The notes under the pieces were generated by a model, which made no database searches, had not been told where the DNA came from, and saw only the letters and a list, made by a program, of their open reading frames with translations. Shown in pieces: positions 3,398 through 45,319 of a stretch of DNA of 64,000 nucleotides. Made by a program: the position numbers and the translations under genes. The stretch is from NCBI GenBank assembly GCA_964547105.1, contig CAZJLO010000002.1:40779-104778 (forward strand), given 5' to 3'. The DNA comes from an uncultured Thermotogae bacterium (GTDB lineage Bacteria > Bipolaricaulota > Bipolaricaulia > UBA7950 > UBA9294). Every line of letters starts with the position of its first letter. Within the stretch, counting starts at the first letter, position 1.

Positions 3398-3400
3398 CGG

Positions 3401-3754: not shown

Positions 3755-3833
3755 TTTCTTGTCCTTTCCTCATTGGTGACGTGTTCGTAAAGCAGGGGCG
3801 GGCCGACGAGGCGGCCCGCCCGAATTGCCTGGT

Positions 3834-11255: not shown

Positions 11256-11286
11256 AGATGGTTCTCCTTCTGCTCGGTCCAAATTT

Positions 11287-12609: not shown

Positions 12610-12620
12610 GGTCTCCTTCG

Positions 12621-16559: not shown

Positions 16560-17713
16560 CTCGTTTCTCCTTGTCCATGACGGAAACCATGTGATTCTCT
16601 GTCGTCGTCTCGAATCCAGGACAGAGCGTGTGTCGCGCAGGCGGAGACACAAAGGCCGCACTGCCGGCACAGTGAACCGACCTCGGAGTCAAACGACGAC
16701 CTGGCTCCGTAAGGGCAGATTTCCACGCAGCGGTTGCAGTGGGTACATACCTCGGGATTCCAGATGAAGGTGAACAGGCGATCGCCCCCGGCATCGGCGG
16801 CAGGCCGTGTGGCGTCGGGAACGATGGCCGCGCCGATGCAGTCGGCGTAGGCATCGAAGCCAAGCTCCTCAAGGCGCAGCGCGAGGCCTTCCGGAAGCGA
16901 TCGGAGCATCGCCAAGCCTCGGAGAAGAGGCGCGGTGCAGACACCGATTGCCGTGGCCCCCGCCATCAGCATCTCCACCGCATCTTCGGCACGCATGACT
17001 CCGCCCGTTCCGATGATCGGGACGGAGCGGGGGAGAACCGCGGACAGGCGGGCAACCAAATGAAGTGCAATCGGGAATAGCGAGCCGCCGGAGAGCCATG
17101 CTGAGACGGAGCCAAGTTGGGGCCGTCGTCTCTCCACATTGATGCGCAGCGCTGGTCCGATGGAATCGGAAGCGGTGATCGCAGCTGCGCCGCGCGCTGC
17201 GCAACGCTGCGCTGCGCCGATCGGATCGCGCCAATTGACGCTGATCTTGGCGATCACCGGGATCTTAACCAGAGTGACGGCCTGCATGACCATTGCTTCG
17301 ATCGCCGCCTCATCGTACGACACGATCTCCAGGGCGTCCGCTCCCGCTTTCTCCAGGCAGGGCGCCAACGCAGCGACATCCGGCGGTGCGAGCCCGACAC
17401 TGGCGATCACGATCGCCCCGGATTCCTTTGCAAGCGGAAGCTCGTGTTCGATCCACGCGGACGCAGACAGCGTCGACCAGCGTTCGGCGTTGAGAAGCGT
17501 GCCGGTTCGCTCCCAGAAGATAGTTGGCGTCGGATCGACGGCTGCGGCCCGGGAGATCGTCTTGGTGACCACGGCCGCTGCTCCGGCTTTGTGCGCGCGG
17601 GCGATCGATTCCCCGTTGTGGGAAAGGGGTCCCGAGGCGAGCAGGAACGGATGGGGCAATTGCAGGGAGCCGATTCGAGTCGTCAGTTTCACGAGAGATC
17701 TCCTTTCTTCCAC
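16556..17713 (-). CDS. dihydroorotate/dihydropyrimidine dehydrogenase-like flavoprotein with C-terminal 2x[4Fe-4S] ferredoxin domain (PreA-like)
   Basis: 385 aa; DHOD class-1 TIM-barrel sequence (LASGPL, IIGTGGV) followed by CTHCNRCVEICP and CRQCGLCVSAC ferredoxin motifs. Confidence 0.8.
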   Translation of the reverse strand: MEERRSLVKLTTRIGSLQLPHPFLLASGPLSHNGESIARAHKAGAAAVVTKTISRAAAVDPTPTIFWERTGTLLNAERWSTLSASAWIEHELPLAKESGAIVIASVGLAPPDVAALAPCLEKAGADALEIVSYDEAAIEAMVMQAVTLVKIPVIAKISVNWRDPIGAAQRCAARGAAAITASDSIGPALRINVERRRPQLGSVSAWLSGGSLFPIALHLVARLSAVLPRSVPIIGTGGVMRAEDAVEMLMAGATAIGVCTAPLLRGLAMLRSLPEGLALRLEELGFDAYADCIGAAIVPDATRPAADAGGDRLFTFIWNPEVCTHCNRCVEICPYGARSSFDSEVGSLCRQCGLCVSACATHALSWIRDDDRESHGFRHGQGETR

Positions 17714-19056
17714 AGCCGAAGAGCCTCGCGTGCGGCGCGGGAGCGGATGTATTCACTGTCCAACGTCCGGACCGTGCCACGCTCCATCAGGATGTTCCCG
17801 CCGACCATTGACAGCACGACATGCGTGCTGTTCCGATAGAGGAGCGTCTGGTCGAGCAGGTTGTCTTCGGTGAGCGGCGTATCCTCGCCTGGAACGACCC
17901 CGATCAGATCGGCCGGTGCGCCGACGGACAGCATGCCGAGTTCGGGCATACCGATTGCGGCGGCGCTCCACGAAGTCGCCATTCTCCATGCAGTCTCCGC
18001 AGGAATCGCGGTGGCATCGCGTTGTGCCGCCTTGTGAAGGAGGAACGCACCGCGCATCACTTCGAATGGATCATTGATGTAGCCGTCCGTGCCCAGCCCC
18101 GGGGTCAGCCCGCGTTCGATCATTCGCGGAACCGGGGCGATGCCTCCTCCGACTTCGCAGTTGCTGAGCGGCATATGTGCGGCCCGGACTCCCTGCTTGG
18201 CAAGAACATCCAACTCATCGCCGTCCACGGCGACAAGCTGCGATGCGAGAACGGATGGGTCCCAGAAAGCGAGCCGGTCGTACCAATGCACGGGGCGAAG
18301 CCCATTTCGTGCAACGCACCACGCCGGTTCATACTCGCTCTCCGAAAGATGCAGCTGGAGGTCGGCGTGAACACTTGCCGCCGATGCCTTTGCCCGGCGC
18401 ACGAATGCTTCGGAACACGTGAAGCTGGTATGGATGCATTGCATCCCGCGGATTCGGGAGTCGCCCCTCGTATCTCGGATGAACCGCTCGTTCTCGGTGA
18501 GGGGCGCATCGCCGCAGGTGGCTCCTGCCCGCTCGGACGCCTCGATCGATAGAATCGCCCGAAGGCCGGCTTGCTCCACGACGGATGCCTCGCTTGCGAG
18601 AATGCCCGCCGGTGCGAATGGCGCCTCTAGAATGTCGCAGAAGGTCGTGAATCCCGAGCGGATCATGGACAGGCAGGCCAGTTCGCAGGCGGCGACGATC
18701 ATCTGTTCATCAAGGAGGTTCTCGACTTTGGGCCACCAGAACGCCTCCAGGAACGAGTCGAATCCCGGTTCCGGCGGAGCGGCGGGGATTCCGTGGGCCA
18801 ACAGCCCGTATGCGTGCATGTGGGCGTTTACGAATCCAGGGCACAGGACAAGATCCCGACAATCGATGTGGTCGGCGTTGGGGAATGTCTCGGCGAGCGT
18901 CTCGTTGGGAGCGATCTCGGTGATTCGCCCGTCGCAAACGACGACACCCCACCCGCGATGAATCGAGAAAGCGGATGAGGAAGTCGGCGTACCGCCTGAT
19001 CCCGATCCCGGTCCCGATGCGATGACCCAGCCGCCGAAAAGAACAAGAGGATTCAC
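17689..19056 (-). CDS. COG0402-type amidohydrolase (SsnA/chlorohydrolase/deaminase-like), second copy
   Basis: 455 aa; CPGFVNAHMHAYG, HLSESEYE, HMPLSNCEVGGG, GLGTDG; ATGA overlap with upstream AOR stop. Confidence 0.85.
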   Translation of the reverse strand: MNPLVLFGGWVIASGPGSGSGGTPTSSSAFSIHRGWGVVVCDGRITEIAPNETLAETFPNADHIDCRDLVLCPGFVNAHMHAYGLLAHGIPAAPPEPGFDSFLEAFWWPKVENLLDEQMIVAACELACLSMIRSGFTTFCDILEAPFAPAGILASEASVVEQAGLRAILSIEASERAGATCGDAPLTENERFIRDTRGDSRIRGMQCIHTSFTCSEAFVRRAKASAASVHADLQLHLSESEYEPAWCVARNGLRPVHWYDRLAFWDPSVLASQLVAVDGDELDVLAKQGVRAAHMPLSNCEVGGGIAPVPRMIERGLTPGLGTDGYINDPFEVMRGAFLLHKAAQRDATAIPAETAWRMATSWSAAAIGMPELGMLSVGAPADLIGVVPGEDTPLTEDNLLDQTLLYRNSTHVVLSMVGGNILMERGTVRTLDSEYIRSRAAREALRLWKKGDLS

Positions 19057-21008
19057 GAGACCTCGCCTCCTGCAAGTGGCTTGCCTGCCGGGCGCCGGCG
19101 GTATCGCTTCAGCTCCGCCTCGACGTCAGCAAGTTTGAGTCTCCGCAGTGTCTCGGGTGTCGGCCAGCCATCCACCTGATCCCACCCGCGCAACGCGTAG
19201 TACTCGGCCAACATCTGCTCGGCATGTGCGATCTCGCCGCGGGCGCCTCGGGAAGGAGATGGTTCCTGCGTGAATCGCCGAGGCAGACGGTCATCGGCGC
19301 GGGAAATCCCGTGGCGGGCGTTGTAGGCACGCATTTGGTTGGTGATGCGCTCGCCTGCCTCGCGGAGTTCAGCTTCGTTAATGTCCCAGCCGGTTGACAA
19401 ACGGAGCCCTTCCGTAAGATCGGGCCAGTAGATCTCGGCCATCACAAATGTTCCGCCGGATTTGCAGACACCGAGGGAATCTACCACGGCCCCGAAGTCC
19501 TCGCCATCTTTCACGAGGAATGGCTTGTGTTTTGTTGCATGGGGATCCGCCATCTCAGGAAGATACGTTGGGCCGTAGCGGCGTGCGACCTCGTCAGGAA
19601 CGCCGGTTTCATCGATGGTTGGGAACGCCTTCAGATGGTCGGCGCCTCGGCTGGCGGTGATGTGGGCCAATCCCATCGACTGCTGTGCCCGACCGTCCTG
19701 TGCGGGGATCTCCATCCCCTTGACGTGCATGGCATATTCGGCGCAATCACCGCCGATGGAAGCGGCCGCTCGTGAAACCCCTTCAGCAAGGAGATCGCCG
19801 AACCCTTCGCGAGCCGCGATCATCCGAATGAGCTTGAGCATGCTCTCCGAGTTGCCCCAGCTAAGATCGAGCCCTTGGGAAACCGAATGCGGCAGCATGT
19901 CGCGCTGCTGTAGTTCCATTGCGAACGAAATGGCGCGCCCGGCGGAAATCGTGTCCATCCCCAGCCGATCGCAGAGATCATTGGCTTCGAGGATCGCTTC
20001 GATGTCGGCGCAACCGACGTTGGAACCGAAGGCGTTGAGCGTCTCGTATTCCAGGCTCGAGACCTCAAGGCCGCTCCTCGGTCCTCGTTCAATGCGGTAG
20101 ACCTTGTCGCAGCGGATCGGGCATGCGTGACAGCCCTCATCTCGCACCCAGTAGCGATTGCGGAGGACCTCGGCGCTGATGGCCGCCGCTTGGTCGAACT
20201 CCCCGTTCTGGAAATTCCGTGTCGGGAATCGCCCGATCTCGTTGGCAAGAAGAACCAAGCTTGCCGTTCCGTATCGGGAGACGGTGGGGAACAGCGGGTT
20301 GGCCCGGATCCGCGCATGCATCGCACGCGCGACTGTGGCGAAGCGCTTGGAGTTGGCCAGCGGGACAGGTCGAGTTCCGCGGATGCAGATTGCCTTGAGC
20401 TTCTTTGAGCCGAGAACGGCACCAAGTCCACACCGCCCGAAACTGCGATTCGGCGATGCCTGGATTGCCGCGAAGCGAATGAGATTCTCTCCAGCGGGTC
20501 CGATTGTGGCGACCTTCATCGCCGGGTCCTCGAACCGGCAACGGATCATTCGCTCTGTTTCCAGCGTGTCATGTCCCCAGAGGTCGTCGGCCGGCTCAAG
20601 CCTCGGGCCGCGACGGTCGATGCAGAGCAAGGTTGGAGATGGGGCAATGCCTCGGATGGCAATCATGTCGTAGCCGGCGCGTTTCAGCTCAGGTCCGAAG
20701 AAGCCGCCAGCATTGGAGTCGCCGTAGATCCCGGTCAGCGGCGACTTGGCGATCGCCTCGGTGCGTCCCGAACAGGGCCAACCCGTTCCCACGAGCGGAC
20801 CGGTGGCAATCACCAGCCAAGCGTCGGCGGACAAGGGGTCGATCTCGGCGCCGACGTGATCCCACAACCAGCGGACGCCGAACCCGTTGCCGCCCAACCA
20901 GGACCTAGCGAACGCTCCGTCCAAGACGCGTGTGCGAACGGTCCCGGCGGAAAGATCGACTTCAAGCCATGCCCCCATGTAGCCACCAGCGATTGCGTTC
21001 GATGTCAT
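19053..21008 (-). CDS. tungsten-type aldehyde:ferredoxin oxidoreductase (AOR) family protein 1
   Basis: Likely start MTSNAIAGGYMGAWLEVDLSAGTV (ATG 21008, ATGA overlap with upstream AOR stop); AOR N-domain (DPLS..LVIATGPLVGT..SGR..AKSPLTG..DSNAGGFFGPELK), DEGCHACPIRC 4Fe-4S ligands, EYE..NAFGSN, C-terminal LPRRF.. Confidence 0.9.
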   Translation of the reverse strand: MTSNAIAGGYMGAWLEVDLSAGTVRTRVLDGAFARSWLGGNGFGVRWLWDHVGAEIDPLSADAWLVIATGPLVGTGWPCSGRTEAIAKSPLTGIYGDSNAGGFFGPELKRAGYDMIAIRGIAPSPTLLCIDRRGPRLEPADDLWGHDTLETERMIRCRFEDPAMKVATIGPAGENLIRFAAIQASPNRSFGRCGLGAVLGSKKLKAICIRGTRPVPLANSKRFATVARAMHARIRANPLFPTVSRYGTASLVLLANEIGRFPTRNFQNGEFDQAAAISAEVLRNRYWVRDEGCHACPIRCDKVYRIERGPRSGLEVSSLEYETLNAFGSNVGCADIEAILEANDLCDRLGMDTISAGRAISFAMELQQRDMLPHSVSQGLDLSWGNSESMLKLIRMIAAREGFGDLLAEGVSRAAASIGGDCAEYAMHVKGMEIPAQDGRAQQSMGLAHITASRGADHLKAFPTIDETGVPDEVARRYGPTYLPEMADPHATKHKPFLVKDGEDFGAVVDSLGVCKSGGTFVMAEIYWPDLTEGLRLSTGWDINEAELREAGERITNQMRAYNARHGISRADDRLPRRFTQEPSPSRGARGEIAHAEQMLAEYYALRGWDQVDGWPTPETLRRLKLADVEAELKRYRRRPAGKPLAGGEVS

Positions 21009-22903
21009 CCGTCTTCCCCTTGTCCCGGCAGGTCCAGTCGCGCCAACGTTGTCTCGGTCGGCAGGCCGTCGCGCGTCCAACCGCGAAGGCCGTAGTAGGT
21101 TTGGAGCATGGCCGGCAGATCGTGGATTCTTGGTTGTGGCGCTGAAACGGACCGTTCCCGGAGAACTTGCTCGGATTGATGGAGTGGAAGCGAATCCTCA
21201 ACGAATCGCCTTGGGAGGGTGTCGTCCGCTGATCGGAGCCCATGCTGGACGTTGATCCAGCGCTCGAGATTGACAATCCGCTCCCCGACTGTGAGAAGAT
21301 CACTCGCCGACATCGGCAATCCCAGCGATGACAGCGCCAGCGCGATGTCCGTCGGGAGAATGGCGTACGTTTCGGTTGTTGTGAACTTGCAGACGCCGAG
21401 AGCGTCGGAAACAGCACAGTACTCCTCGGAGAACTTCAGAAGGCTCGGCTTGGAGGTTTCGTCCCACGGGTCGAGTACGGATGGAAGCAGGTCGGGAAGG
21501 ATTTTCTTGACGACCGTCTCATTGTTGGTGAGCTCGATGGTCGGGAGGCCGTACAGGTGATCAGCGCCTCGATTGGACGTCGCATGCCCGAGGCCGAACG
21601 CCTTGGCCACACGTGGCTCCTGGCAAGGGATCTCAAGGCCCTTCACATGCATTGCGAGATCGAGGGCATCGCCGCCGATCCGTTCCGCCGCACATCGCGT
21701 TCCTTGGCCGAGCAATGCTCCAAGACCGCGCTGCGATGCTATCTGCTCGATCAATTCAAGGATTGCGGCCGGATTGCCCCAGGTGAGGTCAACCGTTGGA
21801 TCATCGAGCAGCCCGCGTTCGTGGCACTCCATCGCGAATGAGATGGCGCCGCCGACGGAGATGGTGTCGAGCCCCAGCTGGTTGCAGCGAGCATTGGCAT
21901 GGACGATTGCCTCCGCGTCGGAGCAGAAACAGTTGGGGCCGAGCGCGTCGATCGACTCATATTCGGGGCCGGCGCTTCGGCACTGATGAGGTCCTGTCCC
22001 GACTTCTGAGATGCGGCCGCACCGAATCGAACAACCCTGGCAGCCTTTGGTTTGGGATCGGAAAGGCTCAAATGCGCCGGCATCAACCCGATCGACAAAC
22101 GGGACTTGCCCCAACCGGTGGTTCTTCGTCGGAAGATCGCCGACGACATTCTTGATCGCCACCAGGTAGGGCGTTCCCCATTGGGCAAGCGACGAAACAC
22201 CGGGGTTGTCGGCGACAGCACGGTGGGCTGCGCTCGCTAACGATACGAACCGGCGTGGCCAGCGCAGCGTATCCCCCGATACCGTTACAATCGCCTTGAG
22301 CCGTTTGTGACCGAGAACCGCGCCTCCGCCGCAACGCGCCGCGGCGCGTCCACCGTCGATCAGAATTCCGGCCATCGGGACACCACGTTCGCCGGCGGGA
22401 CCGATGCAGGCGACCGAAGCGGAGGCAGGTCTCACTTGATCAAGGAGGCGTGCCTCAGCGACATCCGAGTCCATCCCCCACACAAACGACGCGTCGCAAA
22501 GGACGGCGGTCCCATCTTCTACGCGCAGGTAGACCGGATCGTGGGCCCGCCCGGCGATGGCCAGTGCGGCGATGCCTTGGGACGCGAGCCGATGGGCGAG
22601 GGCTCCTCCGGCATTGGCGTAGCCGTAGATCTCCGTTAGCGGAGATCTGAAACCAAAGTGAACCCGCGAAGACGACGGCCACGGGCTGGCGGACAGAAGC
22701 CCCGGTGCGACAATAAACGGGGCTTCGGGGGAACACGGGGCAATCTCCCAGATGTGGGCGTCGGCAAGAAGCCGCGCCGCCAACCCTCGACCGCCAAGAT
22801 ACGAAGAGCGGTAGGACGATGGCAGGACGGAACGGGTGATGGAGCGCGTTTCGAGGTCGACACAGAGCATGAAGGAAGGAAGGGGAGCGCTAGGGTTAGG
22901 CAT
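21005..22903 (-). CDS. tungsten-type aldehyde:ferredoxin oxidoreductase (AOR) family protein 2
   Basis: 632 aa; same AOR architecture (CQGCSIRC, EYESIDALGPN, LPRRFVED); alternative start MLCVDLETRS at 22870; the two AORs are clearly divergent paralogs, not a recent duplicate. Confidence 0.85.
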   Translation of the reverse strand: MPNPSAPLPSFMLCVDLETRSITRSVLPSSYRSSYLGGRGLAARLLADAHIWEIAPCSPEAPFIVAPGLLSASPWPSSSRVHFGFRSPLTEIYGYANAGGALAHRLASQGIAALAIAGRAHDPVYLRVEDGTAVLCDASFVWGMDSDVAEARLLDQVRPASASVACIGPAGERGVPMAGILIDGGRAAARCGGGAVLGHKRLKAIVTVSGDTLRWPRRFVSLASAAHRAVADNPGVSSLAQWGTPYLVAIKNVVGDLPTKNHRLGQVPFVDRVDAGAFEPFRSQTKGCQGCSIRCGRISEVGTGPHQCRSAGPEYESIDALGPNCFCSDAEAIVHANARCNQLGLDTISVGGAISFAMECHERGLLDDPTVDLTWGNPAAILELIEQIASQRGLGALLGQGTRCAAERIGGDALDLAMHVKGLEIPCQEPRVAKAFGLGHATSNRGADHLYGLPTIELTNNETVVKKILPDLLPSVLDPWDETSKPSLLKFSEEYCAVSDALGVCKFTTTETYAILPTDIALALSSLGLPMSASDLLTVGERIVNLERWINVQHGLRSADDTLPRRFVEDSLPLHQSEQVLRERSVSAPQPRIHDLPAMLQTYYGLRGWTRDGLPTETTLARLDLPGQGEDG

Positions 22904-23918
22904 GGTCTTGTCCTCTTCGGGATCGAGCCGAATCGCTTGTCCAAGCTGTTATGAGGATCCGCGGATCAATGGCTCCGGCGTGGGCAACGGAGCCGGTTGT
23001 CTCATCATTCACAGTGATCTGGGCAATCTTGTTGAGGTGGGTCAGATCGGGGATCGCCTCGAAGACGCCACCGGCGGCTTCGAGCAACTCGGCGAAGAGG
23101 TGCCCGTAGTGTCGGCAAGAACGAAAAACCAACTGATCCGCGATCTTCGAGACGTGCAACCCGGGAGGCAGCCGAAGCGAGATCGTTGCGCATCCGGCGT
23201 AGTGGATGAAGTCGTCGGCGAGGAGTCGGGGCGCCACGGTCTGTCCCAGGCGGGCAATCGAGGGAGCGATCGGAACGGATCCGGTGATGTGCGACACGCA
23301 GGCGGCATCCATCCCGAGGCTCTCCTGTAGCGTAAACAGGACACTTTCGTTGCCGCGTCCTGCGATCTGCGCCGAGCCAGCGGGACTGCCAGGCGGGACG
23401 GCGATGAGCACGAGATCAGCGGCGGCGACCCTGGCCCGGGCGGCGATCGCCTTCACGACAGCGGGGGATGGTCTCGTTTCCGTCTCGATCACCGCTGTTC
23501 GCCAGCTGCGGGCGAGATCGCCACGATTCGCGGGTGAGGTAGCGAACGCGGCGCGAATCGGGCCGGACACGCGAACCGCATCGTCGACTTCGGAGAGGGG
23601 AAGCGAAAGCTGCAGCCCCAGTGCGGAGCGGACTGGAAGCCAGGAATCGACGATCATTCTCGGGAGAACCCAGCCGTCGAGGTCCGTCGTATCGAGCCGG
23701 GCCATCGCCATCCCGCCGTGGCAGATTTCGACGAGTCTTCGGCCGGCTTCCCAGGATCCCGGCGCATCAATGCCACAGTCGATGATCATCGGAGCGGAAG
23801 GAGCAGTTGAGATGTCGACCCCAAGCAATGGGGCATCGGCGCGCAGCGCATCCAGCAGAAGCTCAAGCCGTGGGGCAGCCTCAACAAGCATCTGCCTGCT
23901 CCAGGTGACGTCTCTCAA
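22896..23918 (-). CDS. mch: methenyltetrahydromethanopterin cyclohydrolase (Mch) family protein
   Basis: 340 aa; IIDCGIDAPGSWEAGRRLVEICHGGMA, GSVPIAPS, ITVNDETTGSVAHAGAIDPRIL closely parallel Mch signature blocks as I recall them. Confidence 0.75.
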   Translation of the reverse strand: MRDVTWSRQMLVEAAPRLELLLDALRADAPLLGVDISTAPSAPMIIDCGIDAPGSWEAGRRLVEICHGGMAMARLDTTDLDGWVLPRMIVDSWLPVRSALGLQLSLPLSEVDDAVRVSGPIRAAFATSPANRGDLARSWRTAVIETETRPSPAVVKAIAARARVAAADLVLIAVPPGSPAGSAQIAGRGNESVLFTLQESLGMDAACVSHITGSVPIAPSIARLGQTVAPRLLADDFIHYAGCATISLRLPPGLHVSKIADQLVFRSCRHYGHLFAELLEAAGGVFEAIPDLTHLNKIAQITVNDETTGSVAHAGAIDPRILITAWTSDSARSRRGQDHA

Positions 23919-23969
23919 TGTAGCGATCCTTTCTTCGAACCAGCCGTGGCGGAGTCTTCTCTCCGCCGC

Positions 23970-24884
23970 CTACGTGACGATAAGATCCTTCAGGGGGAGA
24001 CGGCGGTTTCCCCATTGCCCGCCAAATGACGGTGCTGTAATCGCGACGATGCCGGGGGTGGCACAGAACGCGTTGATGGCGACGCGAAGACCGTTGCGGA
24101 TTGCCTTGTCCGAAATGGCGACGAGCGGGAATTCGATGACGGCGGCGGCCGCATCAGGGATCTGCGTCTTGACATCGGGGCGATTGCGCAGGGAGGGGCA
24201 GAAGGGCTCGTTGATTGTGACTCCTTCTTCCTTGTAGACGAGCCCGCCAACCTTTGCCCCGCTGATTCCGCCGATGGGGTAGTTGAAAATGGCCACGCCG
24301 ACAACATCGGACAGAACACGGCGGGCCGCTTCTTGGGCCGCCGCAACACAGCAGGTTGCGTTCTCGCCGAAGACTTCCAGAACGCCGTCGGTACCGATGC
24401 AAACGCCCACCTCGCGCTCGATCAGCTGATCCCCGGTCATGATCGGCAGCCGGATGATGTCGCGTCTGCCGAGCTTCTCCGGTGTCTCATATCCGTCTCC
24501 CCACATGGCCACACGGGTCGCGACATCGATCGATCGGATCGACTGTCCGTTCGGTGTGGCGTCGAACAGCGAGCATGTCGGCAAATGCGGGAACAGGTAG
24601 AGCCGGTCGAGAAGAGCAGCGAGGAACGCATCCAACCCTAACGGAGTCGGCGCATTGAGCTGGATCCAAACGCCGGGACGCCCGTCGGGTGTGTGATCTG
24701 GAGAGACTGGACCCTCCACGCAGCCCTGGATTGGGGCGGCGGTGATGATGCTCCAACCGCATAGGTAGCTGGCTTCCGCCAAGGCGACCGATTCCGAAAT
24801 TGCAGTCACCAGCATTCGCGCAATATAGACATCCGTGCACTCACAGACTACGTCGGCGATTGTTGTTCCACGGTATTTCATCAA
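23970..24884 (-). CDS. ftr: formylmethanofuran:tetrahydromethanopterin formyltransferase (Ftr/FhcD) family protein
   Basis: 304 aa; ARMLVTA.., HTPDGRPGVWIQ, C-terminal GIVAITAPSFGGQWGNRRLPLKDLI parallel Ftr conserved blocks (TPDGRPG ; GVVAITAGNYGGKLG..FPL..LL). Confidence 0.8.
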   Translation of the reverse strand: MMKYRGTTIADVVCECTDVYIARMLVTAISESVALAEASYLCGWSIITAAPIQGCVEGPVSPDHTPDGRPGVWIQLNAPTPLGLDAFLAALLDRLYLFPHLPTCSLFDATPNGQSIRSIDVATRVAMWGDGYETPEKLGRRDIIRLPIMTGDQLIEREVGVCIGTDGVLEVFGENATCCVAAAQEAARRVLSDVVGVAIFNYPIGGISGAKVGGLVYKEEGVTINEPFCPSLRNRPDVKTQIPDAAAAVIEFPLVAISDKAIRNGLRVAINAFCATPGIVAITAPSFGGQWGNRRLPLKDLIVT

Positions 24885-24919: not shown

Positions 24920-25990
24920 TCAGAGAAGCTGGGATGCCTCCCCAGGCCGTGAACCCGGCGTGTGCAGCACGCGCAACGCATTGCAGCGCAGCTTCAAGGC
25001 GACGGATTCTCCAAATGCCAGCTGCCGCACACCATTTCCATCGAGGACGAGCACCGCGGAGGGATCCAGCCCGCCGACGGAAATGGTGTCATCGGGGCCG
25101 AAACAGACGTGGTACAAGTGAAGCGGTTCGACATCGGCCAGGATCTGGTCATCGACTTGTGTACGAATTGCAACGTCGCTGATTCCGGCGAGGACCGCGG
25201 GACGGCCGAGGTACGGTCCCCAAGACATCAGACCGCTCACTGCTTTCCCGGCGTAGACCGAGCACTCATCGAGATTGAGCGGCGAAGCGACGATCTGTGC
25301 CAAACGGTGAAGTTTCCCGTCAATCACCGTCCGGCCGTTCTTCTCGACGAACGTCGTCTCCCGGCAGACCGATCTTGGTTTGGTCGAGCGGTCCTCCCCC
25401 CGCAGGTGCGCTGCGGCATCCAGATCGACTCGCCTTCCGCTCCTTGTTCCGAAGTACAAGTTGCTGAACGCTACGTCGTTGAATGCGATCCCTAGACGGA
25501 CGCCGTCGCAGAACGCCTCGATTCCGTGGACGCTTGCCACGTCAAGTTCGGCTAGTCTTTCAGCTGTCAACGCGGTGCCGTGGACACGAATCAGCGGACC
25601 GACGTTCGATGAACCGACTCCGATTCCCAGCAGGGGAATCGGGCGTCCGCTGTCGATAATCACGGAGGCGATGTCAGCAAGGGTTCCATCGCCGCCGATG
25701 CCGATGAGGGCGTCGACACCCGCGGCGAGCAGCGACCGGGCGGCGGAGCCGGCGCTGGGAACGGACTCAAGCGTAGATCCCTTCACCAGCTCAACCTGCG
25801 CTGCATCCGTTGAGGCGGCTGCGCGGGCCGAGAATCCGCCGCGAAGCAACACGATCCGCCAACTCGACCTGGCGCGGGCAACGGCATCGACAGCACGGCA
25901 CACCGTTTCGCGTACGACATCTTCTCCCGCCCCCGCCTTCGGGTTGGCGACAACGCCGACTCGAGCGTGAGGAAGAACCCAAGGCGTCAT
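24920..25990 (-). CDS. ATP-NAD kinase / diacylglycerol-kinase-fold protein of unknown specificity
   Basis: 356 aa; GVVANPKAG and GIGGDGTLAD (GGDGT) catalytic motifs; lacks the full NAD-kinase NxGxLGFL/GSTAY pattern, so substrate unclear; ATGA overlap with upstream permease. Confidence 0.5.
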   Translation of the reverse strand: MTPWVLPHARVGVVANPKAGAGEDVVRETVCRAVDAVARARSSWRIVLLRGGFSARAAASTDAAQVELVKGSTLESVPSAGSAARSLLAAGVDALIGIGGDGTLADIASVIIDSGRPIPLLGIGVGSSNVGPLIRVHGTALTAERLAELDVASVHGIEAFCDGVRLGIAFNDVAFSNLYFGTRSGRRVDLDAAAHLRGEDRSTKPRSVCRETTFVEKNGRTVIDGKLHRLAQIVASPLNLDECSVYAGKAVSGLMSWGPYLGRPAVLAGISDVAIRTQVDDQILADVEPLHLYHVCFGPDDTISVGGLDPSAVLVLDGNGVRQLAFGESVALKLRCNALRVLHTPGSRPGEASQLL

Positions 25991-26814
25991 TTGACGGCGC
26001 CTCCCGTGAGTCCCGAAACCAAGTAGCGCTGGCCAAGCATGAACAAGATCAGCACTGGAAGGGACACCAACAAGGCAGCAGCGCTAAGCGGCCCCCATTG
26101 GACGACGCCGCCGGAGCCGATAAAGCGGGCAAGATACACCGGCAACGTGTAGTGGGCATTGTCGCGCATGATGACCAGCGCGAAGAAGAACTCGTTCCAG
26201 GAGAGAAGAAGCGAGAACGTTCCGACGGCAAGAAGCCCGGGAACCGATAGCGGGAGGACGATCTTCACGAGCGAGCGGATCCGTGTGCAGCCGTCGATCT
26301 GCGCCGCTTCCTCGAGAGCGTAGGGGATCTTGTCGAAGTACCCTTTCAGCAGCCAGACGCTGAACGGCATGCTGAACGTTGTGTGCATGATGATCAGGCC
26401 GAACAGCGTGTTGACAAGCCCGTATACGGAAAGCACGGTGAACAGGCCGAGCACCATGATAATGCCGGGGAACGCCTGGGTGGCCAAGAGCCAGATCGAG
26501 AATACCGTCCTACCCCTGAACTTGTAGCGGGACAGGGCGTAGCTTGCCGGCGCGGAGACACAGGCGGACAAGACAATCGTCGAGAAGGCAACGATCACGG
26601 TATTTCGAAGATTGACGAAGAACGTCGTATTGAACAGCACCTCGCGAAAGTTGTCGAGCGTTGGAGCAAGCGGAATGCCCATCGGAGATCCGAAGATTTC
26701 GACATCCGACTTCAGCGCGTTGAACACGAGAAGAAGAACCGGAAACGCAAGCGCCAACACAAACACGAATACGGCAACATTGAGGAGAATTTGCTTGACT
26801 GGATGCATCCTCAT
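25987..26814 (-). CDS. carbohydrate ABC transporter permease (CUT1, MalG/AraQ-type)
   Basis: 275 aa; 6 TM, EAA loop (ALEEAAQIDGCTRIRSLVKIVLP). Confidence 0.85.
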   Translation of the reverse strand: MRMHPVKQILLNVAVFVFVLALAFPVLLLVFNALKSDVEIFGSPMGIPLAPTLDNFREVLFNTTFFVNLRNTVIVAFSTIVLSACVSAPASYALSRYKFRGRTVFSIWLLATQAFPGIIMVLGLFTVLSVYGLVNTLFGLIIMHTTFSMPFSVWLLKGYFDKIPYALEEAAQIDGCTRIRSLVKIVLPLSVPGLLAVGTFSLLLSWNEFFFALVIMRDNAHYTLPVYLARFIGSGGVVQWGPLSAAALLVSLPVLILFMLGQRYLVSGLTGGAVK

Positions 26815-27704
26815 TCCAGCACCTCCCGGATGTAGAACACGACCACCAACAGGAGCACACAGAGGATGATCAGCCCGATCGCGGCGCCATAGCCGGCCTG
26901 GTAGTACATGAACGCGTTCTGGTAGGCGTACAGAGGCAGTGTAATCGAGGCGCTGCCGGGTCCGCCTTTCGTAAGAACGAAAACGATGTCGAACATGTTG
27001 AAAGTCCAGATCGATTCCAAGGTGAGAATGATCAAGATCACCTTCTTCATGCTTGGCATGATCACGCGGAATTGGGATTGGAAGTGGCCGGCGCCGTCGA
27101 TCGAGGCCGCTTCGAGAACCTGCTTGTCAAGCGCTTGCAGTCCGGCGAGCAGCATGATCGTCACAAAGGGAATTCCCATCCAGATATTGGCGATGATGCA
27201 CGTCCAGAGCGCAAGCTGGGGATCACTCAACCAGCTCGGCGGATTGGCGACTCCCACTCCGCGGAGCACGGTGTTGATGGGGCCGTTGGGCAGGAAAATG
27301 TAGCGCCAGATCAGTGAAACCACCGTTCCAGGGAGCGCCCAGGGGATCAGCGTGATTGTGCGGTAGAACCGGCGTCCCCGCAGGTACTGCGAGTTCAGCA
27401 TGGTGGCCAGGATATACGAGAAGAAGAACATCCCCCCGACGCTTGTCACCGTCCAAACAAGGCTGTTGGAGAAACCTCGAAAGAAGGTCCCATCCTGGAA
27501 CAGCAGGATGAAGTTCTCCCATCCGACGAAGACGTTTTCCTGAGCCAGCGCCCTGTACGCATAGAACACTTTGGATATTCCCTGAGCCAGGGGGTACAGG
27601 CTTACGCCGCAGAGCACGATGAGCGCCGGCATCAGAAACGGAAGCGCCTGTCGTTCCGCGCGGAATCTCTGTGTCGGCGGAATCGGTCTCGTCCTAGTGA
27701 CCAT
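26811..27704 (-). CDS. carbohydrate ABC transporter permease (CUT1, MalF/UgpA-type)
   Basis: 297 aa; EAA loop (VLEAASIDGAGHFQSQFRVIMP), 4-nt overlap with downstream permease. Confidence 0.85.
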   Translation of the reverse strand: MVTRTRPIPPTQRFRAERQALPFLMPALIVLCGVSLYPLAQGISKVFYAYRALAQENVFVGWENFILLFQDGTFFRGFSNSLVWTVTSVGGMFFFSYILATMLNSQYLRGRRFYRTITLIPWALPGTVVSLIWRYIFLPNGPINTVLRGVGVANPPSWLSDPQLALWTCIIANIWMGIPFVTIMLLAGLQALDKQVLEAASIDGAGHFQSQFRVIMPSMKKVILIILTLESIWTFNMFDIVFVLTKGGPGSASITLPLYAYQNAFMYYQAGYGAAIGLIILCVLLLVVVFYIREVLE

Positions 27705-28746
27705 CGTTTTCTCCGAACGTGATCGCGATCTTCAACCCATCTCCTGCAGACGCAAGCTCAAACGCTCGTTCGATCTCAGAGATGTGCACGGAGTGGGTAA
27801 TCATCTTTGAGATTTCTGACGCATGGTTGTGAACAAGGTCGACCGCGGCCGCGAAGTGCTCGGTGGAGAACCCGAAACTCCCCACGATCGATACTTCGCG
27901 ATAGTGGATGTCGAACGGATCGACGGAAAGCTTCACGTCGCGGGCGAGTCCTCCGAACCACAGGACGACTCCTCCTGGGGCGACCAGCGACTCGAGCTCC
28001 TCGACGGCACGTTTGACGCCAACCGCGGCAATTGCTCGATCCGCATGGGGCGTTCCCCATCGACGGCTCATTTCATCCTTCAGGACTGCAGTGGTTGCAT
28101 CAATGACATCCAATCCAAGCTGTCGTAGGCGTTCAATCCTTGACTCCGAGCTCTCGGTGATGAGCACACTTGCCCCGCGGAGGCTTGCCGCAAGCGCCGT
28201 TAGGACGCCCATCGGACCGCCACCGACGATCAACAGCTTGTCCCGATCGGAAACGCCGGCGCGGTTGAGGCCGTTGAGCACACAGGCAAGCGGCTCGGCC
28301 AGCGTGGCGACTTCGTCGGAAACCTGGTCATCAACTCGAAATGTTCCGTGATTGACGATTCTCTGCGGAACAACGACATACTCCTGCAGCGCGCCGGACG
28401 TCGCGGCTTTGGATCGACACAGTTCCCCAAGGCCGCGTGTGCAAAGCTCGCAGGTGCCGCACGGGACGTACGGCGCGACGGCGACACGATCTCCGAGAGA
28501 GAATCCGCTGACATGAGCGCCGATCTCTACGACTTCCCCGCACATCTCGTGGCCGAGGACGCAGGGCGGCGCGAAGTACGGATGCCCTCGGGAGAATGCC
28601 TTGAGATCCGTACCGCACAATCCGACTGCGCGGATCTTGATCAGAAGCTGATCGTCTTCGGGAACAGGTCTCTCTTTCCGTCGGATCTCAATCCGACCGA
28701 GTTCGACGAGCTCCGCCGCGAGCATTCGGTCCTTCTCTTCCATCAT
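27694..28746 (-). CDS. Zn-dependent alcohol/polyol dehydrogenase (MDR family)
   Basis: Start likely MMEEKDRM (28746); GHEMCGEV catalytic Zn motif, CGTCELC structural Zn, GGGPMG Rossmann. Confidence 0.85.
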   Translation of the reverse strand: MMEEKDRMLAAELVELGRIEIRRKERPVPEDDQLLIKIRAVGLCGTDLKAFSRGHPYFAPPCVLGHEMCGEVVEIGAHVSGFSLGDRVAVAPYVPCGTCELCTRGLGELCRSKAATSGALQEYVVVPQRIVNHGTFRVDDQVSDEVATLAEPLACVLNGLNRAGVSDRDKLLIVGGGPMGVLTALAASLRGASVLITESSESRIERLRQLGLDVIDATTAVLKDEMSRRWGTPHADRAIAAVGVKRAVEELESLVAPGGVVLWFGGLARDVKLSVDPFDIHYREVSIVGSFGFSTEHFAAAVDLVHNHASEISKMITHSVHISEIERAFELASAGDGLKIAITFGENDGH

Positions 28747-28853
28747 CGGTTCACCCACTCCGGTTCCACTTGTGCTGCAACAGGCTGTCTGAGATGAGAT
28801 GCAGCAGGAATGGGGGGCGGGCGAGCCGCCCCCCTTCCCATGGTTCGGTACCC

Positions 28854-29366
28854 TTAGTACTCGACGCGAATCTCTACGACGAACCACGACCAGACTTCAG
28901 GAGCGTAGAGGTCTTCCACGCCTTCGATCTGATACGGGAACACCAGCTTGATGGGGCCGCCCATGCTGCTGATGATCTCGTCGCCGTCCGACATGAATGC
29001 GATCAAGATTGGGTAGTAAAGCGCGTCTCTGGCTTCGATGACGACTTCGAGCCCGTCGGAGGCCACAGAAACGATCCGTGCCGCGTCGGCGGGAATCCCC
29101 ACGTAGTCGAGAAGGATGCCAAGCTCAACACCACCATAGATCTGAGCGCCGAGCCACGGATCTTCGACTTCATAGTCCGTGTACGGAAGCGCCTCAAGCA
29201 TCGCCATGTCGAATTCGAGCACACCGTTCTCATTCTCAAGTGCGATCGCTCCCGACATGGTCAATACGACGTCGCCCGTGGGAGCAGGACAGCTCTGAGC
29301 AAACGCCATGGTACCGAGAAGCCCTACAACCAGCAGACACAACCCAACGCGAGCTGTGCTTTTCAT
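28854..29366 (-). CDS. small secreted protein, possibly molybdopterin-oxidoreductase-fold (sulfite-oxidase-like) domain
   Basis: Start MKSTARVGLCLLVVGLLGTMAFAQ signal peptide; ~170 aa; pattern ..LPYTDYEVEDPWLG..GVELGILLDYVG..DGLEVVIEA..PILIAFMSDG..GGPIKLVFP resembles Oxidored_molyb domain; weak. Confidence 0.45.
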   Translation of the reverse strand: MKSTARVGLCLLVVGLLGTMAFAQSCPAPTGDVVLTMSGAIALENENGVLEFDMAMLEALPYTDYEVEDPWLGAQIYGGVELGILLDYVGIPADAARIVSVASDGLEVVIEARDALYYPILIAFMSDGDEIISSMGGPIKLVFPYQIEGVEDLYAPEVWSWFVVEIRVEY

Positions 29367-29494
29367 TGTCTCCTCCTTCATCCCGTCCGGGGTCATGATT
29401 CGATCCGAGTTTGAGTCCCAACATCAACATGGCTGCATTTTGCGGTGAAGACTTGACGTCTGTTTGCGCACCACCTCCTCGGTCCGATGGCTGC

Positions 29495-30766: not shown

Positions 30767-30788
30767 CGACAACCTCCCGGTTTCCTGT

Positions 30789-34364: not shown

Positions 34365-34438
34365 GTCTCCCTTCGCCGCTCCACTTCCAGTCAGGCCAGC
34401 CGTTCGTTTCTCGGCGCGGCCCGGCCGAAGCCCGAGCC

Positions 34439-45296: not shown

Positions 45297-45319
45297 GCCA
45301 GCCGGAAGCATCCGGGGAC

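Follow-up and report, generated by a model that had tools for sequence, protein, structure and literature searches.

The window analyzed here, the whole 64-kb stretch of DNA from an uncultured Bipolaricaulota bacterium, contains a minus-strand operon of about 27 kb and about 21 genes headed by a LacI-family regulator gene, and within it lies a pair of genes related to those of formylmethanofuran:H4MPT formyltransferase (Ftr) and methenyl-H4MPT cyclohydrolase (Mch) (Table 1). The original prediction had assigned the pair to these families from the motifs HTPDGRPG, GIVAITAPSFGG...RLPLKDLI, IIDCGIDAPGSWEAG, and VNDETTGSVAHAGAIDP. All of these are present in the two open reading frames (ORFs), and the profile searches returned the expected models. 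The Mch-like ORF (340 aa) matches Pfam MCH (PF02289) with 148.6 bits (E 3e-43; profile positions 10-309 of 311), and the Ftr-like ORF (304 aa, or 303 aa if started at the ATG at 24881) matches FTR (PF01913; 71.2 bits; 1-142 of 142) and FTR_C (PF02741; 72.1 bits; 1-149 of 149), so that both are full-length homologs. In the PDB, the Mch-like sequence matches 1QLM (Mch; E 7e-26) and the Ftr-like sequence 1M5H (Ftr; E 9e-39). A Foldseek search of the PDB with the Mch-like protein as modeled by AF2 (pLDDT 91.3) retrieved Mch structures only (TM 0.78-0.87; identity 21-27%).

Table 1. The operon and a neighboring amidohydrolase gene, in order from the operon head (positions are those of the window; type I loci are those of the Bipolaricaulota type)
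Feature	Position	Strand	Basis or remarks
LacI-family regulator, operon head	36591..37598	-	Same place in L002, L009, L016, and L040
DhnA-type class I aldolase (ADH-synthase-like)	35833..36621	-	PF01791, 103.9 bits; NF005556, 187 bits (cut-off, 241)
Second transporter set: two permeases and SBP (34439-35725)	32653..35725	-	
Metallophosphoesterase, secreted/anchored	30789..32519	-	Metallophos + MetallophosN; N-terminal hydrophobic segment
Extracellular solute-binding protein 1 (SBP_bac_1)	29495..30826	-	
Small secreted Oxidored_molyb-like protein	28854..29396	-	PF00174, 24.7 bits; signal-peptide-like N terminus; in all type I loci
Zn-dependent (MDR) alcohol/polyol dehydrogenase (Zn-ADH)	27694..28887	-	ADH_N + ADH_zinc_N
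Two CUT1-type ABC permeases	25987..27704	-	BPD_transp_1; ORFs overlap by 4 bp
NAD-kinase-fold kinase, operon-specific family, immediately upstream of the Ftr-like gene	24920..25990	-	Weak Pfam matches, AF2
Ftr-like protein, divergent formylmethanofuran:H4MPT formyltransferase paralog	23970..24884	-	Pfam, NCBIfam, and PDB matches
Mch-like protein, divergent methenyl-H4MPT cyclohydrolase paralog	22896..23918	-	Pfam, NCBIfam, AF2/Foldseek
Aldehyde:ferredoxin oxidoreductase (AOR) a	21005..22903	-	AFOR_N + AFOR_C; 8-bp overlap with Mch-like stop; top PDB matches AOR 9MQX and 1AOR, FOR 1B25 ranking lower
Aldehyde:ferredoxin oxidoreductase (AOR) b	19053..21080	-	AFOR_N + AFOR_C; top PDB match 1AOR, 430 bits; true start probably near 20978
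Amidohydrolase A, SsnA-like cog0402 aminohydrolase	17689..19056	-	Amidohydro_1; SsnA 216 bits and chlorohydrolase 232 bits, both under NCBIfam cut-offs
PreA/dihydroorotate-dehydrogenase-like flavoprotein, C-terminal 4Fe-4S domain	16556..17692	-	DHO_dh + Fer4 gene call/Pfam in L001; NCBIfam PyrD 139.8 bits, PreA 115 bits
Amidohydrolase B, cog0402 deaminase type	15168..16670	-	Pfam Amidohydro_1, 223.8 bits; start likely near 16559
FAD_binding_4 2-hydroxyacid dehydrogenase (GlcD-like)	13766..15184	-	
Fe-S/CCG subunit (GlcF/TfrB/LdhH-like)	12621..13769	-	
ADP-ribosylglycohydrolase-family protein	11287..12717	-	PF03747, 163.4 bits; kept in type I and type II loci
PfkB-family (ribokinase-type) kinase, final operon gene	10347..11369	-	PF00294, 179.9 bits
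Amidohydrolase C, dihydropyrimidinase (DHPase)/hydantoinase-type	8809..10350	+	TIGR02033, 375.8 bits (cut-off, 393)

Both proteins reach only about half of the NCBIfam equivalog cut-offs (Ftr-like, 158.9 bits on TIGR03119 and 160.3 bits on NF002554, with cut-offs of 292.6 and 297; Mch-like, 123.4 bits on TIGR03120, with a cut-off of 228.8) and are 21-33% identical to the canonical enzymes. The Ftr-like protein belongs to a clade of about 77 clusters that are at least 45% identical to the query, while canonical Ftr does not exceed 33-34%; for reference, the identity between bacterial FhcD and archaeal Ftr, two proteins with one common function, is 45% (PMC6926001). The catalytic residues are retained nonetheless. 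Ftr Glu245 (E251 in the query) is invariant in 75 sequences, and the Mch set Gln93/Arg183/Glu186 (A. fulgidus numbering; Q103, R188, and E191 in the query) is invariant in 41 clade members. Of the canonically conserved columns, 35 of 60 are kept in the Ftr-like protein and 23 of 28 in the Mch-like protein. The residues around the catalytic ones are altered: E53Q, F124W, G163D, and L286W near the Ftr active site are invariant in the clade, and V185N, K191T, A95S, and a deletion of W97 adjoin the Mch catalytic residues clade-wide, with further Mch changes at N226D, L230H, S251F, Y273E, D276P, and F280N. Judged by sequence, the two genes are divergent paralogs of canonical C1 enzymes.

The neighbors described in the original prediction (sugar-type ABC permeases, a Zn-ADH, two AORs, amidohydrolases, and a PfkB-family kinase) were all found; they are co-directional with the pair, and many overlap by 4 bp. 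The solute-binding proteins look like generic sugar binders, and the top NCBIfam matches of the Zn-ADH, threonine and scyllo-inosose dehydrogenases, lie under their cut-offs. The NAD-kinase-fold kinase shows weak Pfam DAGK_cat and NAD_kinase matches and a GGDGT motif, and the top PDB folds for its AF2 model (pLDDT 85.7) are the NAD kinases 7QVS and 1U0R (E 2e-15). Its family comprises only 23 clusters, whose contigs, judged by recorded size, are mostly those carrying Ftr-like genes. Amidohydrolase C lies on the opposite strand and is probably associated with the operon; in three loci (L006, L009, and L035), the kinase gene and the Ftr-like gene have its ortholog between them.

Synteny extends over the whole operon in about 16 related loci from metagenomes, in which identity of the Mch-like protein is just 43-71%, and the predicted link between the pair and its flanking genes is thereby borne out. 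Furthermore, the Ftr-like module occurs in four unrelated gene contexts with GC contents of 34-69%. All 13 loci with 8 kb or more of sequence downstream of the Ftr-like gene carry amidohydrolase B, and 19 of 23 loci have an Mch gene no more than 4.5 kb away from the Ftr-like gene. The L006/L035 lineage has no Mch gene in the 4.4 kb (L006) or 10 kb (L035) of sequence available downstream of the Ftr-like gene, and a DHPase-type cyclic amidohydrolase gene abuts the Ftr-like gene. Two distant loci (L010 and L034) have an Mtd-like gene (Mpt_N, 81.8 bits) and an ECF vitamin-type transporter adjoining the module, and L005 has a canonical Mch (TIGR03120, 301.7 bits, over the cut-off of 228.8) at a distance of 8 kb from it.

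Amidohydrolase B is orthologous to the amidohydrolase adjoining FTR/MCH in L004, L005, L007, and L010. Its top NCBIfam matches are PRK06038/PRK08393 and 5'-deoxyadenosine deaminase, and its top PDB matches are the MTA/SAH deaminase 4F0R (199.6 bits), 4DYK/4GBD, 8-oxoguanine deaminase, and TM0936; the formimidoylglutamate deiminase model gives 166 bits. PnrA/Bmp nucleoside-type ABC transporters are encoded between the Ftr-like and Mch genes in L030 and L033, and loci of both type I and type II have ADP-ribosylglycohydrolase and PfkB. The contexts share a nucleoside theme of PnrA-type transporters, ADP-ribosylglycohydrolase with PfkB, and the NAD-kinase-fold kinase. A PRPP synthetase gene is carried by L037.

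No Fae, Mtd, or Fhc/Fwd domains were found among the window genes scanned, in agreement with the reported absence of Fae, Mtd, and FhcABC near the pair, nor did the 64 kb of the window or the roughly 16 type I loci yield any other H4MPT- or methanofuran (MFR)-linked genes. The original prediction knew of no earlier description of the gene context, and our literature search likewise found no paper on it. Its suggestion of N-heterocycle breakdown fits the cog0402 deaminases, the PreA-like reductase, and the hydantoinase/DHPase-type enzyme.

We tentatively propose, with a probability of about 45%, that the Ftr-like and Mch-like proteins are active, neofunctionalized paralogs that act with amidohydrolase B directly on the substrate heterocycle rather than on H4MPT or methanofuran. 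In this reading, the three enzymes would dismantle an imported ribosylated amino-N-heterocycle: it would be deaminated, its amidine ring would be opened to give an N-formyl amine, and the formyl group would be removed. We infer the following scheme, including its class of substrate, its order of reactions, and its formyl acceptor. An extracellular phosphorylated riboside would be dephosphorylated by the secreted metallophosphoesterase and imported via the solute-binding protein/ABC system. An exocyclic amino group would be taken off by amidohydrolase B, whose closest relatives carry out this reaction on adenosine analogues and 8-oxoguanine, and the Mch-like enzyme, using its Arg/Glu/Gln set, would hydrate the amidine/amidinium carbon of the ring N-CH=N to give a ring-opened N-formyl amine. 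Such a ring opening is the chemistry of Mch on methenyl-H4MPT+ and likewise that of IMP and GTP cyclohydrolases on purines. The Ftr-like enzyme may then pass the formyl group to an amine acceptor by means of its retained buried Glu. The ADP-ribosylglycohydrolase and PfkB would free the ribose and phosphorylate it. The two AORs, together with the Zn-ADH, NADK-fold kinase, and DhnA-type aldolase, may handle side-chain and sugar fragments, and ring remnants may be left to the SsnA-like and hydantoinase/DHPase-type amidohydrolases and the PreA-like reductase.

Several observations point to action on the heterocycle itself: the half-cut-off scores and the Ftr identity gap, set against the FhcD/Ftr value; catalytic residues that stay invariant while adjoining residues are replaced clade-wide; the persistence of the module across four unrelated contexts; and the nucleoside theme, including amidohydrolase B and PRPP synthetase. 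The lack of a nearby Mch gene in L006/L035, where a DHPase-type enzyme abuts the Ftr-like gene, is expected if the role of Mch is catabolite ring opening. The missing H4MPT/MFR-linked genes argue in the same direction, as do published Acetothermia/Bipolaricaulota reconstructions, which employ folate enzymes (PMC9586279). Other points speak against it. The solute-binding proteins resemble sugar binders, the joint recruitment of two successive pterin enzymes is simplest if a pterin-like ligand was retained, the 23 retained Mch columns suggest that the head-group pocket may be similar, and the Mtd-like and ECF genes lie by the module in L010 and L034. Moreover, Mch chemistry is metal-free and proceeds on a cationic amidinium, and ordinary neutral purines are far less electrophilic, which by our own reasoning makes a plain purine nucleoside a chemically doubtful substrate; the formyl acceptor could itself be a C1 carrier. 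The location of these intact but strongly diverged relatives of Ftr and Mch, along with a purine-type deaminase, in a large conserved operon for uptake and breakdown suggests that they have a job outside classical C1 metabolism.

The original prediction had instead invoked a methanopterin/methanofuran-like carrier that accepts a C1 unit released from the substrate of the operon. In such a model, which we regard as possible but rather doubtful, the pair acts on an H4MPT/MFR-like or folate carrier that takes a formyl or formimino unit from N-heterocycle cleavage: amidohydrolase B would turn the formimino group into a formamide, the Ftr-like enzyme would load formyl, and the Mch-like enzyme would cyclize it to methenyl for C1 metabolism. 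The joint retention of two catalytically intact enzymes, the deiminase-model score of amidohydrolase B, the Mtd-like genes of L010 and L034, and the canonical Mch of L005 are consistent with it, and the Wood-Ljungdahl pathway of the Bipolaricaulota could take up C1 units (PMC9586279). However, that pathway is described as being of the folate type and the phylum as largely folate-auxotrophic (PMC9586279, PMC13408713). The low equivalog scores, the clade-wide replacements within the active-site segments, and the missing carrier-linked genes also argue against the carrier model; the window amidohydrolases are deaminase- or hydantoinase/DHPase-type rather than FwdA/FhcA-type, and both AORs are of the AOR rather than the formaldehyde oxidoreductase (FOR) type. 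Conversion of N5-formyl-H4F to methenyl-H4F normally requires ATP, which makes a folate version thermodynamically awkward. It is unlikely, though conceivable, that the carrier is instead the substrate, the operon importing and dismantling or salvaging methanopterin-type cofactors from co-resident methanogens while the pair unloads C1 units from methenyl- or formyl-H4MPT; canonical Mch and Ftr both bind H4MPT. By our own mapping, the operon offers a plausible enzyme for each structural part of methanopterin: metallophosphoesterase for the phosphodiester, ADP-ribosylglycohydrolase for the alpha-ribosyl O-glycoside, PfkB for ribose, the FAD_binding_4/CCG dehydrogenase for 2-hydroxyglutarate, Zn-ADH, kinase, and aldolase for the aminophenyl-deoxyribitol chain, AOR for the arylacetaldehyde, and deaminase and reductase for the pterin. 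The secreted phosphoesterase and solute-binding proteins, the ECF and Mtd-like genes flanking the module in L010/L034, and the predicted reliance of Bipolaricaulota on external pterins (PMC13408713) agree with this, but the mapping is circumstantial, the binding-site replacements speak against authentic H4MPT, amidohydrolase B is nearest to adenosine-analogue rather than known pterin deaminases, the PnrA-type transporters indicate nucleosides, and our literature search found no paper on such a pathway.

The canonical Ftr and Mch reactions are freely reversible, and the pair might run in the salvage or biosynthetic direction, the Ftr-like enzyme formylating an amino-pyrimidine or amino-imidazole riboside, imported as a ring-opened or damaged precursor, and the Mch-like enzyme closing the ring to rebuild a purine-like nucleoside. 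The vitamin or nucleoside transporters adjoining the module in L010, L030, and L033 and the PRPP synthetase of L037 would suit this, yet the Bipolaricaulota module sits among plainly catabolic enzymes (AORs, aldolase, 2-hydroxyacid dehydrogenase, and PreA-like reductase) and a deaminase as obligatory partner suits degradation better, so that we consider this direction improbable. Finally, the low equivalog scores could also mark a duplicate that is orphaned or decaying and functionally unconnected to its neighbors, an alternative that the original prediction had itself named and to which we give almost no credence. The ORFs are full length and span the entire Pfam models, the catalytic residues are invariant in the 41 Mch and 75 Ftr homologs, the genes overlap their neighbors or sit very near them, and gene order is kept in loci down to 43% identity; synteny and conservation effectively refute it.

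Both genes of the pair are present in the window as open reading frames, of 304 aa (303 aa from the ATG) for the Ftr-like and 340 aa for the Mch-like protein, with the sequence blocks quoted in the original prediction. The family identity of both proteins is confirmed, far beyond chance and unambiguously in Pfam. The Ftr-like protein matches both lobes of formylmethanofuran:H4MPT formyltransferase (Ftr/FhcD; EC 2.3.1.101) over the full length of the models (PF01913, 71.2 bits; PF02741 [FTR_C], 72.1 bits), and the Mch-like protein matches methenyl-H4MPT cyclohydrolase (Mch; EC 3.5.4.27) with 148.6 bits (PF02289; cut-off, 25; E = 3e-43) along profile positions 10 to 309 of 311. Searches of PDB sequences returned Ftr entries only for the former (1M5H, E = 9e-39; 1M5S; 1FTR; FhcD 6S6Y) and Mch entries only for the latter (1QLM, E = 7e-26; 4FIO; 4GVQ). 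Likewise, an AF2 model of the Mch-like protein (26 homologs; pLDDT, 91.3) matched only Mch structures in the PDB, with TM-scores of 0.78 to 0.87 at 21 to 27% identity (1QLM, 4FIO, and 4GVQ), and thus has the unique fold of that family.

Both proteins fall under the NCBIfam cut-offs. The Ftr-like protein scores 158.9 bits against 292.6 for TIGR03119 and 160.3 against 297 for NF002554, while the Mch-like protein reaches about half of the equivalog cut-off of TIGR03120 (123.4 versus 228.8 bits), a model with which a canonical Mch from the related locus L005 scores 301.7 bits. In a collection of 5.8 billion proteins, relatives of the Ftr-like protein form about 77 clusters at the 90% identity level that are 45 to 100% identical to it; below 45% there is a gap, and canonical Ftr proteins are at most 33 to 34% identical. 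By comparison, bacterial FhcD and archaeal Ftr, which have one function, are 45% identical (PMC6926001). The Mch-like protein, 21 to 28% identical to canonical Mch, has 31 close relatives as 90%-identity clusters and about 15 representatives at 50% identity; among 1.84 billion cluster representatives scanned exhaustively with HMMER, only 347 were members of the Mch superfamily, about 15 of them in this subfamily. Named relatives of the pair belong to “Candidatus Bipolaricaulota”/Bipolaricaulis, except for one labelled Atribacteria, and at least one locus with an Ftr-like protein in a scan of genome contigs derives from a Bipolaricaulota metagenome-assembled genome. In public annotation the relatives are called hypothetical proteins or genuine Mch/Ftr. 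Judged by sequence, the two proteins are divergent paralogs, not orthologs, of the canonical enzymes.

An alignment of 41 members of the Mch-like clade with 78 canonical Mch and two PDB sequences shows that the clade keeps 23 of the 28 columns that are at least 85% conserved in canonical Mch, including Asp37, Gln93, Ser109-Gly110-Pro111, Gln179, Arg183, and Glu186 (A. fulgidus numbering). Arg183 and Glu186 reportedly form the catalytic pair of Mch, and segment 93 to 95 is said to line the active site; an E186Q variant exists as PDB entry 4GVR. The counterparts of Gln93, Arg183, and Glu186 in the window protein (Q103, R188, and E191) are invariant in the 41 clade sequences. However, the catalytic helix reads A-G-R-x-N-E-S-V-x-F-T in the clade versus S-A-R-V-V-E-T-x-x-x-K in canonical Mch, the active-site segment becomes Q-x-S-x through the change of Ala95 to Ser, and Trp97, which 85% of canonical sequences have, is lost by deletion. 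Further changes are Asn226 to Asp, Leu230 to His, Ser251 to Phe, Tyr273 to Glu, Asp276 to Pro, and Phe280 to Asn; K191T, L230H, Y273E, and F280N are invariant in the clade. The alignment thus has the candidate pocket positions Ala95, Trp97, Lys191, Asn226, Tyr273, and Phe280 replaced or deleted across the whole clade.

The Ftr-like clade keeps 35 of 60 columns conserved in a canonical set of only 13 sequences, the other 25 being altered. The TPDGRPG and SGxK motifs, Asn221, and the catalytic Glu are retained; the latter (Glu246 in A. fulgidus, Glu245 in M. kandleri, Glu252 in FhcD, and Glu251 here) is invariant in 75 clade sequences. A catalytic role of this buried Glu in Ftr/FhcD has been described (PMC6926001). 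Several canonical invariants are changed (Phe16 to Thr, Glu53 to Gln, Phe124 to Trp, Gly163 to Asp, and Leu286 to Trp) and Ser46 is deleted, while Gln52, Trp127, Asp165, Glu250, and Trp290 (303-aa numbering) are invariant in 21 members from all gene contexts. The pair therefore reads as enzymes that would perform unchanged chemistry on an altered ligand.

The pair lies in a minus-strand operon in which many genes overlap by 4 bp.

Coordinates of the operon genes, in operon order, and of other features in the window and in related loci
Feature	Sequence	Position	Strand
Operon	window	37598 -> 10347	-
1. LacI regulator	window		-
2. DhnA-type class I aldolase	window		-
3. Solute-binding protein (SBP) and two permeases	window		-
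4. Secreted metallophosphoesterase	window		-
5. Second SBP	window		-
6. Small secreted Oxidored_molyb-like protein	window	28854-29396	-
7. Zn-ADH	window	27694-28887	-
8. Two further permeases	window		-
9. NAD-kinase-fold kinase	window	24920-25990	-
10. Ftr-like gene	window	23970-24884	-
11. Mch-like gene	window	22896-23918	-
12. Two aldehyde:ferredoxin oxidoreductases (AORs)	window		-
13. Amidohydrolase A (SsnA-like)	window		-
14. PreA/DHOD-like flavoprotein with Fe-S domain	window		-
15. Amidohydrolase B (DadD-like)	window		-
16. GlcD-like FAD enzyme and CCG/Fe-S partner	window		-
17. ADP-ribosylglycohydrolase (ADPRGH)	window		-
18. PfkB kinase	window		-
Amidohydrolase C (DHPase type), divergent, just past operon	window	8809-10350	+
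Acyl-CoA ligase, divergent, just past operon	window	7151-8812	
Ribose-type uptake set	window	1721-6787	
FGGY sugar kinase	window	5246-6787	
Peripla_BP_4 binding protein	window	3834-4823	
Double-domain ABC ATPase	window	1721-3397	
Regions with ORFs lacking a Pfam match	window	44817-52316, 59644-61640	
Examples of such ORFs	window	45320-46285, 48650-49819, 50181-50954, 51249-52316, 53948-55198, 60288-61640	
Cyclase/TPR protein	window	57354-59615	-
Split Zn-ADH	L001	5103-6225	
Divergent Mch	L005	300-1316	-
Mtd-like gene	L010	4472-5380	-
DHPase-type amidohydrolase	L006	8580-9962	
DHPase-type amidohydrolase	L009	8589-10004	
PnrA/Bmp transporter set	L030	1256-6072	
PnrA/Bmp transporter sets	L033	991-4097, 10953-15765	

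The nearest PDB entries of amidohydrolase B are an MTA/SAH deaminase (4F0R), 5'-deoxyadenosine/MTA/SAH deaminases (4DYK and 4GBD), an 8-oxoguanine deaminase, and TM0936. The SBPs of the window, at 29495-30826 and 34439-35725, resemble generic CUT1-type sugar binders only, and the ADPRGH gave weak partial PDB matches only. Because a PDB sequence search with the kinase upstream of the Ftr-like gene gave no match, its structure was predicted; the AF2 model (pLDDT, 85.7) is nearest to NAD kinases, at 14 to 16% identity. The kinase family comprises 23 clusters at 90% identity, most of them on contigs that match, in recorded size, those carrying the Ftr-like gene. The small secreted protein of about 170 aa has a signal-peptide-like N terminus and a marginal Oxidored_molyb match (24.7 bits); its length does not suffice for a normal Moco domain.

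Forty-three further loci (L002 to L044) were obtained from homolog-bearing contigs and one metagenome scan, and tblastn mapping sorts the related loci into four context types. Type I (GC content, 0.54 to 0.69) consists of about 16 Bipolaricaulota-like loci that keep the whole operon, with Mch-like identities down to 43%; the small secreted protein adjoins the SBP in every one of them. In type II (GC content, 0.44 to 0.47), the genes run in the order divergent Mch, MFS transporter, amidohydrolase B, Ftr-like protein, DUF2193, PfkB, ADPRGH, FGGY kinase, and purple acid phosphatase, and further genes nearby encode a canonical Mch, an M19 peptidase, PRPP synthetase, and an AsnC regulator. DUF2193 is an archaeal [4Fe-4S] protein whose function is not known (PMC12375889). 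The divergent Mch of type II (L005, L036, L037, and L038) scores just under the TIGR03120 cut-off (223 bits) and in the alignment lacks the catalytic Arg183 as well as Gln93; in L005, the canonical Mch lies 8 kb from it and the module.

Type III (GC content, 0.34 to 0.40) has two arrangements. L010 and L034 carry, in order, an Mtd-like gene, an M19 peptidase, an ECF transporter resembling YkoEDC, the Ftr-like and Mch-like genes, amidohydrolase B, and sarcosine-oxidase-like genes. Their Mtd-like protein (302 aa) has an N-terminal domain of methylene-H4MPT dehydrogenase (Mpt_N, 81.8 bits) and no NCBIfam match, and among the mapped loci such a gene stands beside the module only in these two. In L030 and L033, the order is Ftr-like gene, PnrA/Bmp nucleoside-type ABC transporter (Bmp, 212 bits), Mch-like gene, and amidohydrolase B; each transporter set comprises an SBP, two BPD_transp_2 permeases, and a fused ATPase, and PnrA-type transporters are confined to these two distant loci. 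L033 also has genes for E1alpha/E1beta of a 2-oxoacid dehydrogenase and sarcosine-oxidase-like genes. Type IV is a single locus, L007, with DUF2193, the Ftr-like gene, an Mch, amidohydrolase B, and an SBP.

Amidohydrolase B is orthologous in all four types and occurs in all 13 nonredundant loci whose sequence extends at least 8 kb past the Ftr-like gene on the downstream side. Of the 23 loci that extend at least 1.5 kb downstream, 19 have an Mch gene no farther than 4.5 kb away; in two of the four exceptions it follows behind the PnrA transporter, and in the other two (L006 and L035) there is none in the 4.4 kb and 10 kb examined, respectively. A DHPase-type amidohydrolase gene immediately precedes the Ftr-like gene in L006 and L035 and lies between the kinase and Ftr-like genes in L006 and L009; its ortholog in the window, amidohydrolase C, is on the opposite strand and adjoins the acyl-CoA ligase gene. 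The conserved unit is the Ftr-like gene, an Mch gene, and a purine-type deaminase gene. Its recurrent company, as annotated, is one of nucleoside and ribose handling: PnrA transporters, ADPRGH with PfkB, the NADK-fold kinase, and PRPP synthetase. Because of this conservation and synteny, the possibility that the pair is an orphan duplicate with no link to its flanking genes is effectively excluded.

The partners reported as missing in the original prediction (Fae, Mtd, and Fhc/Fwd) are indeed absent from the window genes scanned, as are other domains linked to H4MPT or methanofuran (MFR). Neither Fae, MtdA/B, and FhcABC/Fwd nor H4MPT/MFR biosynthesis genes appear in the type I maps (tblastn and gene calls, 8 to 21 kb per locus), in which tblastn covered a reference protein set only, including the Mtd-like protein. 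Scans of the window genes gave no PurH, PurO, or FTCD domain, none of the operon genes was identified as an MtnA-type isomerase or phosphorylase, and a search for riboswitches with Rfam gave nothing at the gathering threshold, either for the window or for eight distant loci. The AORs are ruled out as formaldehyde oxidoreductases, their best matches being of AOR type, not FOR. The amidohydrolases are ruled out as FwdA/FhcA analogues, all three being of the cog0402 deaminase or the hydantoinase/dihydropyrimidinase type.

We tentatively favor, at a probability of about 0.45, a model in which an imported ribosylated amino-N-heterocycle is the direct substrate of the conserved trio, and we infer each of its steps. 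The heterocycle would be deaminated after import, the Mch-like enzyme would hydrolytically open the ring at the amidine carbon to give an N-formyl amine, and the Ftr-like enzyme would transfer the formyl group off this intermediate, while the remaining operon enzymes may consume the ribose, side chains, and ring remnants. Mch is metal free and acts on a cationic amidinium; therefore, the true substrate may be a cationic or otherwise activated heterocycle and not a plain purine. Thiamine/formylaminopyrimidine, 7-methylguanosine, and NAD-derived compounds are chemically attractive candidates. If direct action on a heterocycle is true, it would be a new metal-free hydrolytic route of ring opening and deformylation for N-heterocycles in anaerobes and the first non-C1 function for both folds. 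We favor it because of the conserved trio, the nucleoside/ribose company, and the folate-type phylum, in which reconstructions of Acetothermia/Bipolaricaulota place folate enzymes in the Wood-Ljungdahl pathway (PMC9586279), which is predicted to be extensively folate auxotrophic (PMC13408713), and which is not listed in a review of H4MPT/MFR gene distribution (PMC5020050).

The original prediction had the pair work on a pterin- or furan-type C1 carrier, a reading consistent with four points: two enzymes that canonically share one pterin are retained together, the Mch-like clade keeps 23 of 28 conserved columns, L010 and L034 have the Mtd-like gene, and amidohydrolase B resembles formiminoglutamate deiminase. 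We regard this reading as rather unlikely. In a further reading, Bipolaricaulota, which are pterin auxotrophs by prediction and live with methanogens, would use the operon to take up archaeal cofactors of the methanopterin type and to strip them or break them down. Horizontally acquired and retuned Mch and Ftr would unload the C1 unit, and the other operon enzymes would use up the ribose, hydroxyglutarate, aryl-ribitol, and pterin that make up the remainder. An operon enzyme can be matched to each chemical part of methanopterin, but the matching is circumstantial; we regard this reading as improbable. Either reading would imply an undescribed pterin/furan cofactor economy in uncultured Bipolaricaulota, and cofactor degradation would represent the first route for the catabolism or salvage of a methanogen C1 coenzyme. 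Because the canonical Mch and Ftr reactions are both reversible, the pair might also run in reverse in a ring-closing salvage role, to which we give a slimmer chance still.

Several further known systems come close to the one described here. In methylotrophs, FhcD works with the amidohydrolase FhcA, and here too a formyltransferase homolog keeps company with an Mch homolog and a member of the amidohydrolase superfamily, a set that would formally allow methenyl to be turned into formyl and the formyl to be released. However, amidohydrolase B is a mononuclear deaminase-type cog0402 enzyme, not FwdA/FhcA, and it, instead of FhcABC/Fwd, always accompanies the Ftr-like gene. PurH (AICAR transformylase/IMP cyclohydrolase) and the GTP cyclohydrolases may share the logic of a deaminase, a cyclohydrolase leading to an N-formyl intermediate, and formyl transfer or removal, and clostridial purine fermentation via formimino-THF the theme of anaerobic N-heterocycle breakdown with C1 release; the enzymes of all these are not homologous to the pair, and the likeness would be mechanistic only. 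The operon also recalls the salvage of nucleoside by-products (DadD/MtaD and the DHAP shunt) in that it encodes a DadD-like deaminase, a kinase, a DhnA-type aldolase, an ADH, and aldehyde-oxidizing enzymes, but these all fall under equivalog cut-offs, and the Ftr/Mch pair and additional enzymes for ring degradation are present besides them.

Mch and Ftr serve as markers of H4MPT/MFR-dependent C1 metabolism: methanogenesis- or methylotrophy-like pathways are inferred from genomes that encode them, and such finds enter arguments about the antiquity of these pathways. Here, a coherent and widespread subfamily pair with its catalytic machinery kept is set in a putative nucleoside/heterocycle uptake-and-breakdown operon of a folate-type phylum, a setting that, together with the obligatory deaminase partner, would surprise a specialist in C1 metabolism. 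Automatic Mch/Ftr labels on these proteins are probably misleading under any model, and metabolic reconstructions built on such labels could be distorted. We class the two folds and the kept catalytic machinery as known and the conserved functional setting as new; that such a context was undescribed agrees with our literature search, which found no report of Ftr/Mch homologs in a comparable setting.

A near-identical contig, L001 (ENA assembly ERZ23495388), differs from the window by single-nucleotide polymorphisms and at least one indel; its Zn-ADH is split into calls of 220 and 36 aa, while the window ORF is intact. Several sizeable ORFs (144 to 450 aa) in other parts of the window had no Pfam match at E ≤ 1e-4. 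A ribose-type uptake set lies just past the operon. The cyclase/TPR protein (753 aa), which is unrelated to the pair, joins the catalytic domain of an adenylate/guanylate cyclase to an extended TPR array.
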